Source: Candidatus Thorarchaeota archaeon
GTDB lineage: Archaea > Asgardarchaeota > Thorarchaeia > Thorarchaeales > Thorarchaeaceae
Length of the DNA: 32,000 bases
Reading direction: 5' to 3'
Assembly (NCBI GenBank): GCA_003345555.1
Contig: PRDJ01000077.1
Span: forward strand, 35,105-67,104
Part shown: one piece after another, positions 15,823-27,006 of the stretch
How positions within the stretch are numbered: position 1 is the first letter of the stretch
How the letters are laid out: each line of letters begins with the position of its first letter
Translations under genes and position numbers: made by a program
Notes under the pieces: model-generated
Seen by the model: only the letters and a program-made list of their open reading frames with translations
Told to the model about the DNA's origin: nothing
Databases searched by the model: none

Positions 15823-16365
15823 ATGGTGTCAGTGTCTACGAACTTCGACTTCATGAGGAAAGTCGTTATGATTGGCGCGGGCGGAAGTGGGAAGACCGCA
15901 CTCGTCAATCGCTTTCTCACTCAGAAGTTCTCGGAGCAGTACATTGTAACCATAGGGTCCCAGTTTGCAGTCAAGACAGTCACTGTGGAGAATTTCAACG
16001 GGCACAGCGTGATTGTAAAGCTCCTTGTTTGGGATTTGGCGGGTCAAGAGCGTTTCGATTTCATTCGCAGTAGTTACTACAAAGGATCCAAAGGAGCGCT
16101 ATTGGTTTACGATACGACTCGAAGGAACACTTGGGCTGAGTTGCCCAAATGGATTGAAGAGACTGACAACGCGCTCGGACAGCGAATACCGATTATACTC
16201 CTTGCAAACAAGGTTGACTTGGCGAACGAGCGCGTCATTACTCCTGAGATGGGAAAAGCATTCGTCCAAGAGCACGGTCTTGTTGGTTATCTGGAAACGA
16301 GTGCACTTAACGGACAAAACGTAGAAGAAGCATTTACGCTCCTAGCGAGGTCAAGCATTTCCTAG
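15823..16365 (+). CDS. Rab-like small GTPase
   Basis: G1 GAGGSGKT, G2 TIG, G3 WDLAGQERF, G4 NKVD, G5 ETSAL; RabF-like IGSQF, KLLVW, YYKGS and LVYDTT. Confidence 0.95.
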   Translation: MVSVSTNFDFMRKVVMIGAGGSGKTALVNRFLTQKFSEQYIVTIGSQFAVKTVTVENFNGHSVIVKLLVWDLAGQERFDFIRSSYYKGSKGALLVYDTTRRNTWAELPKWIEETDNALGQRIPIILLANKVDLANERVITPEMGKAFVQEHGLVGYLETSALNGQNVEEAFTLLARSSIS

Positions 16366-22083: not shown

Positions 22084-23223
22084 ATGCCCGTAGCAATGCT
22101 TCTGATTGACTGGGACAGCAAGATAGGGGCCGTGTTGAAAGCAAAGGTCCCCAATGATTTCGCTGACTACTACAAAGAAGACTTGAACACCGAAATCATG
22201 CGTATCTTTACGTCGCACGCTATGGGTGATGCCACAGCCGGTTTCTCATCTCTTAGTGTTCGAATTGGCGGCGAGGAGTATAGCGTTGCATCATACTACA
22301 CAGGCATTCTCCGTGAAGAGGAGCAATACTGTGTGTCACTGTTATTGACACCATCTGAAGATCCAAAGATGTACGAGGCAGCAATAACGTCTGTTGTTTC
22401 TCCGCTAACCAATGCGGTTGTATCGATGACAGATTCCGAGTTCCAAACAGAACTCGAGAACACCTACCGCAGAATAATCAGACTTGCTGGCATGACAGAC
22501 GAGTCGCGCTTGGCCCGCCTGTTTGCTGACGAAGTCTCAAGGGCTGTTTTTCCGAAACTCTGGAAGGGAGGAATATCCAAGGAGGACCTTGAGGAATGGC
22601 TCAAGATGGTCACAGGTCTTCCGAGCGTAAGCGTGGATTCAATACTAGCGCCGTTCGAGGAGCTAGGTATCATCAAGAGCGACTGGGTAGACGAAATAGG
22701 CAGAACCTGTGTCTTTATGATAAAGGATCTTGAGGTCTTCCGTGCTCCACCTCTCCAAGCTATGGAGTCTGCAAGTACTATGGTGGATCCCGAGCTCGCA
22801 GCAGAATACAAGGGCGAGGTGCTGGAATTTCTGACAGAATGGCAGAAGACACCGGACGATACAGTTGCCGTCGCTCAAGTTCTTGCAGACCCTGACTGCT
22901 ACGATATGCTGAACGAGCTGAGGCGTAGGCCAGCAAACATGTCCGAGCTAGAGGCCACACTGGGCATTCCCCCCAAGGAACTGAAAGAAGCAGTCCAGAC
23001 TCTGAAGAAGTACAGAATTGTCTCCGAGAAACGGAGAAAGGGGTCCTCTGGCGAATTTGACAAGTGGCTGTTTCTTCTCAACGACATTCGGGTGCGGTTG
23101 TTCTTCCCCGAATACTTCCTTCAATCTCTAATCGCTGATCTTGAAAAGACGCCTGACGATCCAAAAGCACGCGAAATGGTGCATCATCACTTGCGGCTGT
23201 TGCGAGACAATTTCCCACGCTGA
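22084..23223 (+). CDS. Longin/uDENN-like domain + two winged-helix domains (NPRL2-like architecture)
   Basis: Aa 1-135 follow a bb-a-bbb-aa longin pattern (LLIDWDSKIGAVLKAKVP; SVASYY; YCVSLLL; EDPKMYE); two wHTH-like units follow. Confidence 0.65.
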   Translation: MPVAMLLIDWDSKIGAVLKAKVPNDFADYYKEDLNTEIMRIFTSHAMGDATAGFSSLSVRIGGEEYSVASYYTGILREEEQYCVSLLLTPSEDPKMYEAAITSVVSPLTNAVVSMTDSEFQTELENTYRRIIRLAGMTDESRLARLFADEVSRAVFPKLWKGGISKEDLEEWLKMVTGLPSVSVDSILAPFEELGIIKSDWVDEIGRTCVFMIKDLEVFRAPPLQAMESASTMVDPELAAEYKGEVLEFLTEWQKTPDDTVAVAQVLADPDCYDMLNELRRRPANMSELEATLGIPPKELKEAVQTLKKYRIVSEKRRKGSSGEFDKWLFLLNDIRVRLFFPEYFLQSLIADLEKTPDDPKAREMVHHHLRLLRDNFPR

Positions 23224-23649
23224 GGGTCTTTCACACAGTGGGGAAACGGCCGATCTGTAGTGACGGACACAATCCTAGACAAGACCGCCCAGTTCGGTCA
23301 AGGAATTAATCTGCCATCGAACAATGATCCAGCAGACGCTCTCATGTCTATCAACTGGATGGCTGATGAAGAGCAGGGTCTGCAGTCTGCCGGCACGTTC
23401 TCTCCACACTATTTAATCCCCTTTCTTGATGGCCTCCATGAATGATAGTCTTTGTCTTCTTAATTGATACCGCGCGTAGAAGACTGTCAATCTGAAGATT
23501 GTGGGTGAATAGCTGGAGTAATTCTCGGTGAATAACCAAAATGAACACTGAGACACGTCCTGTTGTACCACCCGATGGGCCATGGTAAATCCCTGAATGA
23601 AGCCAACTTCATCCAGCGAGCAACCAGGGCAAACCAAACTTTGGCTAGT

Positions 23650-24215
23650 CTAAAGCCCGGTGCCGGTTCCGGGATTGGGACCGGCGCCCAAATCTCTTTT
23701 CAGATCCATATCTATGCCCGGCCGACTCTTTGACACGCGGGCATCCTGGCTGCCTCCCGGTCTGGTCGAGTCTATACGGAGGGTTGCGAAGAAACCGAAC
23801 TCCGGCATGACGAACCTCCGCTGCGCAATTGCTACCATACTGGAGTAGCTCGTCGTGAGTTTGGAAAGCCATACCTGATCATTAAGTCTCCCTGCTTCGC
23901 TTAATGGCGAATTGCTGTTTCATTTTACGTTTCGAAGACTAGATAGGTTCATATGCCTAGTCTGCCCAAGATTCTTGGTTGATTCCGGTTCCGGCCAGAG
24001 TCAATTCCGATGAGTGGTTTATGTCGAGGAGCACGGTCCCCCGTCTAGGAACTCGCATTCGCAACACGGTCCCAAATCTCCGAGTTTCTAAATTGGTCCC
24101 CCTTGCCATTGCAAGTACTTGCGCATTACCGGTTTTTGCCGTGCGACGCGACAATCGAGCTCAACGGAAGCGGGAGGTTCGCACGATGCGGGCTTCGGCC
24201 CGGCGAGCTCCCGCC
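23650..24215 (+). ncRNA. Candidate structured non-coding RNA (unassigned)
   Basis: Several stems contain G.U pairs that form only on the + strand (23659-23688, 24046-24090, 24170-24214), and there is a cUUCGg tetraloop; no credible CDS. Confidence 0.35.
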
Positions 24216-24233
24216 CAACCCTATGCACGTAGT

Positions 24234-25178
24234 TCAGGTCAGCTTGCATTCGTACCAGATTCGTTTGTACCGCTCCCGGTAACAGGCGGCCTTGTACATC
24301 ATCGATGCAGGGAAGTCAACAGTGTCGACAATCAGCTCCGACCGCTTAACGCCCATAGAAGCCGCGCGGACCAGAATCTCATTGAGTATCGAACTGCCAA
24401 AGCCATGGCGTCGAAAATGAGGGGTCACTCCGATGCCATCTATCACCAAGCGCCTTTCACCAACCTGACTGCCCATCGGACCCAACAGAGTTCCGATGCA
24501 GTACGCTATTGTATGCCCCTCGCATAGGCCGAAAAGGGCCAAGTCCCTGCAAAACGTGTCTGCCTGGGTTTTCCTGACGTAGTCTTCAGGGGTGACTTCT
24601 CTGTAGTTGAACGAACCCTTGAACAGACTGTTCTGGAGAGAAGCCCATTTACCGGCGTCTCGGTCTTCTATAGTTCGATAGGTCAACTTGGTCGAGCCCG
24701 TCTGACCATGAATATTGCCGATATCAGTATGAACAAGCTTGGCCCATTCCCGTATGGGCCTGAAGCCTCGCTTCTCCAAGAAAGATATTGCAGCTGGCCT
24801 GAAGCTTGGTACATTACAGGTGACCTTGCTAGCTCCCTTGTCTTGTGCACCTGCAATAAGATTGCCTAGCAGCTGGCTTCCTATGCCTGCTTGTCTGAAC
24901 GCAGGGTGCACATACATCGTCAAGAGCGAGCTTGGGTAAGCCCGCCCCATGACAGGTAGGATCGCGCCGAAAGCCACTGCCCGTCCAATCTTGTTTCGTA
25001 CAAGCATTACATCCCGCGTGATATCGACGTCAGGGATAGAATAGCTCTGTTTGAAATAGTCGCCATCTAGGTCCGTATGGTCTGGATTGTCGAGGCCGTT
25101 GGCTGCATTATAGACTGCAGCAATCTCTTCAAAAGCAGATGAATCGGCCGCATGGTGAACCGACATTTCTCTGTTCAT
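24234..25178 (-). CDS. Tandem GNAT acetyltransferase (MshD-like architecture)
   Basis: Two motif-A copies: VHPAFRQAGIGSQLL and VTPHFRRHGFGSSIL. Confidence 0.9.
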   Translation of the reverse strand: MNREMSVHHAADSSAFEEIAAVYNAANGLDNPDHTDLDGDYFKQSYSIPDVDITRDVMLVRNKIGRAVAFGAILPVMGRAYPSSLLTMYVHPAFRQAGIGSQLLGNLIAGAQDKGASKVTCNVPSFRPAAISFLEKRGFRPIREWAKLVHTDIGNIHGQTGSTKLTYRTIEDRDAGKWASLQNSLFKGSFNYREVTPEDYVRKTQADTFCRDLALFGLCEGHTIAYCIGTLLGPMGSQVGERRLVIDGIGVTPHFRRHGFGSSILNEILVRAASMGVKRSELIVDTVDFPASMMYKAACYRERYKRIWYECKLT

Positions 25179-25356
25179 GTTGTCTTGATGTCTCCAAGCA
25201 GTAGCTGGTCTTAGATAGATTAAAGCACCACAGCATCGAGACCCAATCGCGATTTTCGGGCATAAATCACGTGAAGCTTTAACTTATGTCAAACCCAAGA
25301 AGCACATGCTAGGATTGACCTGCCGGCTTCGGCACAATCTAATGCTGGTGTACTGA

Positions 25357-27006
25357 ATGATTCACAATACTTTCCTTGTCTATGGGCGAAAGATCCTCGC
25401 CTCATCTCAGTACTGGCCAACTACGGTGACTCCTGATGAAATCAACGAGTTCATCACAACGAGGGCGGACCTTCTCGCAGAGCATGGGGGTTTCATGGAT
25501 CTTCCGCTTATTGTTGGAGACAAGAAATTCCTTGCCCGGTCTGTCGAATCTGACATGCTGCTCATCTTTGTCAGTGACACGGGAGAAGATGAGCATGTCA
25601 TCTCCGAGAGACTAGACTCTGCAGCCAAGGAGCTAGGAAAGAAAATCAGAGCAAGCGGAGTTCGTGGTGTCGCGAAGCAGTACGCGTCACTCATTGAACC
25701 CATGATTACGACTCGACTCAAGATTGCCCTCGTGGGAGAGGGCGGAGTCGGAAAGACCACAACTCTGCAACTCCTCTTAGGCAACAGTCCTCCCCTATCA
25801 TACGTGCCGACGATTGCGCTGAACCTTGAAACGGTCGAGAATATTCGCTTCGGCAGCTATTCTCTTGTCCTCTGGGACTTCGCCGGTCAAGAGCGTTTCC
25901 GGACTCTGTGGAAGTTCTACTTTCATGGCGCTGATGTAATATTCTTGGTGTGTGATTCTACCTTGCGCAACGTGATTATCAGCAAGGACATACTGAAACT
26001 AATCAGACGCGACGCGCCCAAGGTACCTGTCTTTGCATTGGCGAACAAACAAGACAAGCCTAATGCAATGAAGCCCGAAGTCATTCAGAAGATTCTCGGC
26101 GTTCCCACATATCCTATGGTGGCAATCGACAGAGAGCGCAGAGATGAAATGCTCAAGATACTCTTGACGGCTGCTGCTCAGTACGTCGGTGTAACGTTAC
26201 CTGACGTACCCACATCAGAGCTATTCAGATTCAGTGACCAAGCTGTAAAGGGTGCGGTGAAGGGCAAGGCCGCTGCTCGCGAACACAAAGAGCCGGAAGA
26301 AGCGCCGCCGGAGGAAGTCGTAGAGGAAGTCCTGATTGACGAGCAGGGAAATGTGGTTGAGGCTTCAGAGGAATATGAGGTAGTCGATGAAGTAGTAGAG
26401 GTCCTCGATGAGCCGTCGGAGACTGCGCATGTTCCAAGCCCAGCATCTGTAGAGCAGGCGCCTCGGGAAGAGGGCGAGGCAGCGGAGGCTGGCTTTGACA
26501 TCGCAACCAGCGGCGCGGAATCCTTGGCAGAGGAAACAGGGCCAATGGTTAGCATGGATGCTGAAGAGCGACGCGAGGACTTGTTCTCGGCCTCTGAGAG
26601 AATCAGCGGTTCTTCCGACACGATGTCGGCGACAGTTGCTAAACAGCTGATTTCCGATGCCCTCGATGCAGACGATATAGTTGCCGCAGAGATAGATCGT
26701 ATTCCTCGTGAACATCTGGGTGCAGCAGTCGACGCCATCCGGTGCGATGAGACTGTCTCATCAGAACCTGAGAAGGAAAGCGTGCACGCCGTAGGCGCAA
26801 AAGCTATGCGCGATTTAGACAAAGTCTTAGGTCCCTCCGCAAGCAAGGAAACGAGTTCTCCAGAAGTCCGCAAGGTGTCTGAGAGCCCGATGGACGTGGA
26901 CGAAGAGACAATCCGTGAACTTGGTGCCATAATAGAAAAGCAAGAATCAGATACGAAATCGGAGTCTGGCCAAGCCAGGATGTTGCTTGACGACGAAGAA
27001 GATTAG
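25357..27006 (+). CDS. Longin domain - Arf-like small GTPase - acidic low-complexity tail fusion
   Basis: Longin pattern at aa 1-117; G1 GEGGVGKT, PTI, WDFAGQERF, LWKFYF, ANKQDKPNAM; ~265-aa E/D-rich tail. Confidence 0.88.
   Translation: MIHNTFLVYGRKILASSQYWPTTVTPDEINEFITTRADLLAEHGGFMDLPLIVGDKKFLARSVESDMLLIFVSDTGEDEHVISERLDSAAKELGKKIRASGVRGVAKQYASLIEPMITTRLKIALVGEGGVGKTTTLQLLLGNSPPLSYVPTIALNLETVENIRFGSYSLVLWDFAGQERFRTLWKFYFHGADVIFLVCDSTLRNVIISKDILKLIRRDAPKVPVFALANKQDKPNAMKPEVIQKILGVPTYPMVAIDRERRDEMLKILLTAAAQYVGVTLPDVPTSELFRFSDQAVKGAVKGKAAAREHKEPEEAPPEEVVEEVLIDEQGNVVEASEEYEVVDEVVEVLDEPSETAHVPSPASVEQAPREEGEAAEAGFDIATSGAESLAEETGPMVSMDAEERREDLFSASERISGSSDTMSATVAKQLISDALDADDIVAAEIDRIPREHLGAAVDAIRCDETVSSEPEKESVHAVGAKAMRDLDKVLGPSASKETSSPEVRKVSESPMDVDEETIRELGAIIEKQESDTKSESGQARMLLDDEED

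Follow-up and report, generated by a model that had tools for sequence, protein, structure and literature searches.

The locus and its protein family

The gene considered here lies in a stretch of 32,000 nucleotides from a Candidatus Thorarchaeota archaeon (contig PRDJ01000077.1, positions 35,105 to 67,104), which is referred to as the window. It encodes P0001, whose frame is free of stops and begins with MPVAMLLIDWDSKIGAVLKAKVPNDF (Table 1). An earlier reading of the window, made from its letters only and called the sequence-only reading below, had given this frame, the N-terminal residues and the position of the Arg77 codon at 22312-22314 (22084 + 3 x 76), and translation confirmed all three. 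When 5.8 billion proteins were searched with a word index, 46 homologues came up. Each of these stems from a Thorarchaeota or Asgard metagenome bin, and most are 81-96% identical to P0001 and exactly 379 aa long; some sources, including JGI, name them 'ArsR family regulator'. In an alignment of 20 orthologs the mean column identity is 84%, and the open frame is a genuine gene.

Table 1. Features of the P0001 locus and of the paralogous gene pair; positions are those of the window unless a locus is named, and the domains of P0001 are predictions
Feature	Position	Strand	Basis
P0001 gene, NPRL2-like protein of 379 aa	22084..23223	+	open frame, 46 close homologues, AF2 model
Longin domain, aa 1-136	22084..22491	+	AF2 model and structure comparison
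β1-β2 hairpin, W10-D11-x3-G15 and P23	22111..22152	+	family conservation
β4-β5 loop, aa 73-81 (TGILREEEQ), holding Arg77	22300..22326	+	AF2 model
Winged helix 1, aa 139-221, ending in R220-x-P222	22498..22746	+	model: four helices and three strands
Winged helix 2, aa 256-340, ArsR/SmtB-like fold	22849..23103	+	model: four helices and three strands; structure matches
C-terminal helical hairpin, aa 344-375	23113..23208	+	helices 344-355 and 360-375 in the model
Conserved non-coding element	24031..24225	+	collinear with the spacer of L003 (L003 9250-9450)
GNAT acetyltransferase gene	24234..25178	-	Pfam Acetyltransf_1, E 1.1e-20
P0048 gene, partner GTPase of 549 aa: longin-like N-domain aa 1-115, Arf/Roc-like G domain aa 119-270, acidic tail	25357..27006	+	Pfam, gene order
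P0052 / P0053 pair	L005:1318-2436 / L005:464-1336 (G000 contig C39)	- / -	paralogous NPRL2-like protein and longin-GTPase

The family was outlined with HMMER by scanning the ortholog profile against 1.84 billion cluster representatives, which yielded 225 clusters at E <= 1e-3 (132 at E <= 1e-10), mostly of proteins of 350-400 aa. It is carried by 223 of 301 genomes sampled from the Asgard phylum; all 76 genomes of the window's own Thorarchaeota family have it, as do all 68 of a second Asgard family with six or more copies each. The genome of the window (2.28 Mb, 93% complete) holds two full-length members and one partial longin match. The latter is a 304-aa open reading frame (G000:C36:64025-64351; L060:1498-2412, +), the N-terminus of which matches the longin part only of the family profile (positions 1-114, E 6e-10). 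Some members are extended at the C-terminus to 518-700 aa, two of them by TPR or SIR2 domains; a GTPase fusion was looked for in these extended members and none was found.

In some other representatives the module is found at the C-terminus of proteins of 1,300-2,700 aa with Laminin-G/ConA-like, DUF2341 and Ig-like domains. In these giant proteins the module is preceded, at a distance of about 95-110 residues, by one hydrophobic helix only (EIFPGIPTFYF...), and the module forms the cytoplasmic end of a single-pass surface protein. Examples are P0105, P0120, P0125, P0126 and P0164, and on one contig (G210 contig C9, 430-465 kb) five frames for giant proteins stand in tandem.

Longin proteins termed 'NPRL2-like' have already been reported from Thorarchaeota genomes (Liu et al., bioRxiv 10.1101/2020.10.19.343400 / Nature 2021), and the 'NPRL2-like longin domain' is counted among the Asgard signature proteins and listed for Ca. 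L. ossiferum (PMC9834061). P0001 thus belongs to a known kind of protein. The asCOG of Liu et al. combines a longin with an NPRL2-type C-terminal domain and occurs in most Thorarchaeota metagenome-assembled genomes; the present family has the same combination and occurs in 76 of 76 Thorarchaeota genomes, and it probably corresponds to this asCOG or to a sister of it.

Predicted structure

When AlphaFold2 (AF2) was given the 20 close orthologs, the model was unusable (predicted local distance difference test, pLDDT, 55.6) and its Foldseek matches were marginal; with a 100-sequence family alignment a pLDDT of 95 and a predicted template modelling score (pTM) of 0.88 were reached. In this second model the strands 4-11, 15-22, 53-61, 64-72 and 82-88 and the helices 31-46, 94-114 and 117-135 follow one another in the order β-β-α-β-β-β-α-α, which is the order of a longin domain. 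Two winged-helix units come next, joined by helices at 224-252, and a helical hairpin completes the chain. R220 and P222 at the end of the first unit are conserved in 97% and 93% of the 100 sequences, and P342, L370 and L373 are conserved at the C-terminal hairpin. A longin followed by two α4-β winged-helix units is the architecture described for NPRL2 and NPRL3 (PMC3747258), and the two units in the model of P0001 correspond to that description, which supports the same architecture here. The sequence-only reading had proposed a longin with two winged helix-turn-helix units, and in this respect the model supports it.

The predicted longin domain was compared by VIA-align with the top 1000 Foldseek chains and, independently, with 48,161 representative PDB chains, and both comparisons gave the same ranking. 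The top match is a Lokiarchaeota longin (8yqg_B, Z 12.9). Human NPRL2 is second of the 48,161 chains, with Z 12.4-12.7 in four GATOR1 entries and a root-mean-square deviation (rmsd) of 2.6-2.7 Å over 127 residues, residues 1-136 of the model lying on residues 6-160 of the chain (8fw5_B, Z 12.6). Yeast Npr2 follows with Z 11.2-11.4 and FLCN/FNIP2 chains with Z 10.4-11.4 (6ulg_N, Z 11.1), and TRAPP, AP sigma, DENND1, Lst4, VAMP7, Ykt6 and C9orf72-SMCR8 lie at Z 9-10.6. Among eukaryotic structures, the modelled longin fold is therefore closest to NPRL2, Npr2 and FLCN-FNIP. Full-length Foldseek alignments with NPRL2 and NPRL3 chains of GATOR1 extend over 320-470 columns (E 1e-3 to 5e-3) with high rmsd, and here the domain order agrees but the relative orientation of the domains does not. 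In our view P0001 is probably soluble and cytoplasmic, and it belongs to a large family that is specific to Asgard archaea and has the architecture of NPRL2 and NPRL3.

The second winged helix has its own structural relatives, and these bring in a different function. It superposes on Phr of Pyrococcus (2p4w_B, Z 10.6, rmsd 2.5 Å, 84 aa) and on the ArsR/SmtB repressors CzrA, SqrR and HlyU (Z about 10), and a profile match to Phr (2p4w, E 0.054) reaches through the C-terminal helix. P0001 could on this basis be a DNA-binding transcription regulator of the ArsR/Phr type, in which the longin senses the state of a GTPase and wires this switch to gene expression, as would also fit the JGI name of the homologues, the basic wing of the Thorarchaeota clade (KKYRxxSEKRRKG) and a conserved, repeat-bearing element in the spacer that adjoins the gene. 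We regard this as unlikely. All Pfam HTH matches are below threshold (HTH_20 on P0001 reaches 15.5 bits, under the 27-bit cut-off), the recognition helix is not conserved, and the charges are neutral to acidic, with family means of -1.2 for the first and -2.2 for the second winged helix, -0.3 and -0.5 for the recognition helices and a net charge of -19 for P0001. Neither a Pfam HTH_5/HTH_20 match above the cut-off nor the basic DNA-reading surface of ArsR/SmtB members is present. NPRL2 and NPRL3 use the same kind of winged helices for protein contacts (PMC3747258, PMC9646525) and are not known to bind DNA. Furthermore, the C-terminus of a membrane-anchored giant protein is an awkward site for a DNA binder, and the position of the module at the cytoplasmic end of surface proteins favours an adaptor or signalling role instead.

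Gene pairing with a longin-fused GTPase

Of the clues to function, the gene context is the firmest. P0048 matches Arf (E 3.5e-20) and Roc (6e-18) in Pfam, and Gtr1_RagA weakly and below the cut-off (8.9e-4). The upstream neighbour of the P0001 gene encodes a thymidylate kinase; downstream follow a 1-kb spacer, the GNAT gene on the opposite strand and the P0048 gene. The GNAT gene is absent from the same spacer in two other loci. In a complete Thorarchaeota genome (L003) the GTPase ortholog is the next gene, 465 bp downstream. At the locus of the most divergent ortholog (L001, 65% identity) the upstream genes are entirely different, and a gene for a 314-aa longin-GTPase lies 124 bp downstream. 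Gaps of 1.3-2.9 kb are seen in about ten other Thorarchaeota genomes, which suggests that the GNAT insertion is common to some genera.

A second pair occurs in the same genome. Its NPRL2-like member is the 372-aa paralog P0052, for which a full-length comparison with P0001 gives 24% identity (E 1e-17). The P0052 gene overlaps that of P0053 by 19 nt, and P0053 is a longin-GTPase of 290 aa that is 32% identical to P0048 and has no acidic tail. This tighter and shorter pair is probably better suited to biochemistry. The genome has about 55 GTPase candidates, and the only two that match the longin-GTPase profile over the full length each stand beside a family member.

To count the pairing, coordinates were tallied by hand in 40 Thorarchaeota genomes of at least 90% completeness. 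In 36 of these, the P0001-type ortholog is encoded on the same contig and the same strand as the long-tailed GTPase, which lies 397-2,896 bp downstream; in the remaining four the two genes fall on separate contigs, and in at least two of these cases the ortholog is at the end of its contig. The genes of the paralogous pair directly adjoin, at most 14 bp apart, in 37 of 39 Thorarchaeota genomes. A third NPRL2-like orthogroup, which is absent from the genome of the window, is not adjacent to a longin-GTPase. Outside the Thorarchaeota, the pairing was seen in three other Asgard families (f7, f19 and f28): a longin-GTPase directly follows in L007 and in each of five loci retrieved from two other families, and in one further family it precedes the NPRL2-like gene. 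In a midpoint-rooted FastTree phylogeny, the root of which is not interpreted, the GTPase-adjacent members are on four separate deep branches.

The relevant GTPase is specifically the longin-fused Arf-like protein and not GTPases in general. The sequence-only reading had linked P0001 to its neighbouring GTPases; this stands for P0048 by virtue of the conserved pairing, and it does not stand for a Ras/Rab-like GTPase of 180 aa encoded 6 kb upstream (15823-16365, +). The latter gene is syntenic in L003 and absent from the L001 locus, and it is probably unrelated to the module.

The tail of P0048 (26224-27003, +) comprises about 260 Glu/Asp-rich, low-complexity residues. Such an acidic tail is specific to the GTPase orthogroup that is paired with P0001-type proteins, in which the wing of the second winged helix is basic, as mentioned above. 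The idea that tail and wing touch through their opposite charges is purely speculative.

Conserved residues and the Arg77 loop

In the alignment of 62 family members, near-invariant residues are W10, D11, G15, P23, H45, S70, Y71, G74, L88 and E92 in the longin domain, and E140, R220, P222, R280 and P342 further downstream. W10 (57/62), D11 (53/62), G15 (60/62) and P23 (61/62) belong to the β1-β2 hairpin. In C9orf72, the motifs W33-D34 and G38-P39 have the same spacing as W-D-x3-G in the family, and they lie beside the arginine-finger pocket in all longin GTPase-activating proteins (GAPs); NPRL2 likewise has a GP motif in its β1-β2 loop (PMC12290439). The position after the glycine is A, V or T in the family and P in only 8 of 62 members (13%); P0001 has Ala.

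The sequence-only reading had based its comparison on a G-x6-VPxDF motif shared with human NPRL2. P0001 does contain this motif, of which only G15 and P23 are kept family-wide. The V22 position is usually Y, D25 is D in 18 of 62 members and F26 is usually L, I or V, and the exact match of VPxDF to the human protein is thus partly a coincidence.

The catalytic arginines of NPRL2 (Arg78) and yeast Npr2 (Arg84) are located in the longin lobe (PMC9646525). Arg77 of P0001 had been placed in the predicted β4-β5 loop, and the loop at aa 73-81 of the model agrees with this placement; the block of aa 71-80 has the lowest pLDDT of the model (84). In topology this loop probably corresponds to that of Arg78. 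The residue numbers are almost the same, and Arg77 is invariant in the 20 Thorarchaeota orthologs. It is also kept in two relatives at 31-35% identity, with GMGREREQ in P0054 and GIMRGRDQ in P0058, and the paralog P0052 of the same genome has RARPR (RARPRW) in the same hairpin. P0001 could accordingly be a GAP of the GATOR1 type, with Arg77 inserted as an arginine finger into the nucleotide pocket of the partner GTPase, to which the conserved G15 of the neighbouring GP motif and the Ras-like P-loop (GEGGVGKT) and catalytic Gln of the GTPase would be suited.

We consider this mechanism quite improbable. The whole stretch YYTGxxREEEQYC is equally invariant in the 20 orthologs, so that their alignment is uninformative on Arg77 specifically. 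Across the 62 members, position 77 is occupied by R in 8 and by K, V and S in 7 each; when all hairpin residues are considered, 15 members have any Arg, 18 have Lys alone and 29 have neither. The clade of f7 and f19, which has the tightest operon with the GTPase, shows the hairpin GGW(D/E)(I/L)N, without a basic residue. Moreover, Arg77 is followed by three invariant glutamates, and this acidic loop (R-E-E-E-Q) would provide unfavourable surroundings for a finger that contacts phosphate. The Pro of the GP motif is Ala in P0001, and the arginines that are invariant family-wide are R220 and R280, not R77.

As an arginine is present in few members and absent from the GTPase-paired f7/f19 clade, Arg77 is clade-specific and not the catalytic signature of the family. 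Arg77 as a conserved arginine finger is not supported; the residue is invariant only in the Thorarchaeota orthologs and two near relatives and is missing from most of the family. To judge from the alignments, Arg77 is a lineage-specific trait of the Thorarchaeota orthogroup that cannot represent the general mechanism of the family, and within this orthogroup it may add a GAP finger. This negative outcome is a warning against inferring GAP chemistry from the residue of one lineage.

Proposed function

The modelled fold and architecture, the family distribution and the conserved gene pairing of P0001 are shown here, and because of its fold, architecture and gene pairing we favour the view that P0001 is a regulator or platform for docking a GTPase, of the kind represented by NPRL2 and NPRL3. 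It would act as the dedicated docking partner of the downstream longin-fused Arf-like GTPase. NPRL2-NPRL3, FLCN-FNIP and C9orf72-SMCR8 use a platform of two longins, and a comparable platform could form if the longin of P0001 pairs with the longin of the GTPase itself. In this arrangement the conserved surface around W10-D11, G15, H45 and S70-Y71-Y72-x-G74 would be turned towards the G domain, the nucleotide state of which it would control or read out, and the winged helices may make further protein contacts, as the C-lobes of NPRL2 and NPRL3 do. Physical binding, the pairing of the longins and any GAP or guanine nucleotide exchange factor (GEF) activity of P0001 are what we infer from these data. 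A complex prediction for P0048(1-290) with GTP and Mg together with P0001 gave scores of 0.26 and 0.00 (mark 0.32) and is counted neither way.

Several observations weigh against a docking regulator of this kind. The genes of P0001 and P0048 are 2.1 kb apart with the opposite-strand GNAT gene between them, so that they do not form one transcript in this genome. In the largest, multi-copy (Loki-type) clade no GTPase is found within 1.5-3 kb of the gene. An hhalign comparison of the family longin with the GTPase longin gave a probability of 9.7%, which is not significant. At E <= 1, neither P0001 nor any of the 62 members matches the Pfam families NPR2/NPR3, folliculin or DENN, and HMMER searches of the PDB sequences with full-length and longin-only profiles returned no NPRL2, FLCN or SMCR8 chain. 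Also, longin folds are widespread, and NPRL2 exceeds the other longins by just about 2 Z units.

The missing sequence homology to NPRL2 would equally suit a longin-type GEF or a GTPase-independent scaffold, in which the likeness to NPRL2 is a convergence of common domains. Most longin and DENN platforms are indeed GEFs and not GAPs (PMC3747258, PMC10933270), and the best overall structural match of P0001 is an Asgard longin and not NPRL2. Nevertheless, the top eukaryotic matches are specifically GAP-class longins, and P0001 agrees with NPRL2 in the order, number and size of its domains (379 aa, compared with 380 aa for human NPRL2 and 362-370 modelled residues in the solved chains). We see a convergent GEF or scaffold as rather unlikely.

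A more far-reaching extension of the docking platform can be drawn for the Thorarchaeota. The NPRL2-like protein would join the longin-fused Arf-like GTPase in a heterodimer of two longins, and Arg77, or RARPR in the paralog, would serve there as arginine finger in trans. Such a heterodimer would be a minimal archaeal forerunner of the GATOR1, FLCN and C9orf72-SMCR8 GAPs, with a finger that is gained and lost by clade, and where the module is part of a giant surface protein, it would link GTPase switching to the cell surface. As a whole, we hold this scenario to be decidedly improbable.

Comparison with known systems

The closest parallel are NPRL2 and NPRL3 (yeast Npr2/Npr3; GATOR1/SEACIT). 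Like the model of P0001, they consist of a longin and two α4-β winged helices at a similar length, and in both cases the associated small GTPase bears a longin or roadblock domain of its own. NPRL2 and P0001 share the Gly at the GP position of the β1-β2 loop, and NPRL2 and the orthogroup of P0001 share an Arg in the β4-β5 loop. Unlike NPRL2, P0001 belongs to a family in which the loop Arg varies and most members lack the Pro of the GP motif, and it shows no detectable sequence homology to NPRL2. Also, the partner GTPase resembles Arf and Roc and has its longin at the N-terminus, whereas the Rag GTPases of the GATOR1 system have a C-terminal roadblock domain, and the GTPase itself would supply the second longin of the presumed dimer, unlike in NPRL2-NPRL3.

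C9orf72-SMCR8, FLCN-FNIP and the FLCN/SMCR8-type longins of Asgard archaea (PMC12290439) have the longin fold in common with P0001 (Z 9.9-11.1). The family resembles C9orf72 in the W-D-x3-G spacing, in a hairpin beside the loop of the arginine finger and, in P0052, in the hairpin RARPRW. In contrast to C9orf72-SMCR8 and FLCN-FNIP, winged helices instead of a DENN domain follow the longin, and a Pro after the Gly is found in just that 13% of members noted above.

MglB-MglA and Rag/Ragulator resemble the present pair in that a regulator of longin/roadblock fold is encoded beside its small GTPase, and this adjacency points to a platform, formed by a dimer, on which the G domain docks. Here, unlike in those systems, the fold is a longin and not a roadblock, winged helices are added, and the GTPase provides one platform domain in cis.

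Asgard genomes encode dozens of small GTPases together with longin and roadblock proteins, and the regulators cannot be matched to their GTPases from the genome layout (PMC10933270). In MK-D1, small GTPase genes as a rule do not share operons with genes for roadblock or longin proteins (Tran et al., PMC10933270). The P0001 gene is an exception, as two Thorarchaeota NPRL2-like orthogroups are each tied to a longin-fused Arf-like GTPase of their own, and these ready-matched pairs can be used to ask whether longin regulation of GTPases of the GATOR1, folliculin or C9orf72 type predates eukaryotes. In the literature examined we did not find the two-by-two pairing with longin-fused Arf-like GTPases, the clade-restricted loop Arg or the fusions to giant surface proteins.

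A conserved element in the spacer

The spacer downstream of the P0001 gene contains a conserved non-coding element of about 200 nt, which has 74% column identity to its counterpart in L003, a distant Thorarchaeota genome. No Rfam match was obtained within 23150-25400, and the z-score of its minimum free energy folding is only -0.17. GGTCCC(C) is repeated three times in the element, which also contains a TGCAAGTACTTGCGCA palindrome and a stem capped by CUUCGG, and this stem shows a compensatory change (GCGGG/CCCGGC versus ATCAG/CTGGGC). It could be a non-coding RNA or a regulatory site that binds a protein.

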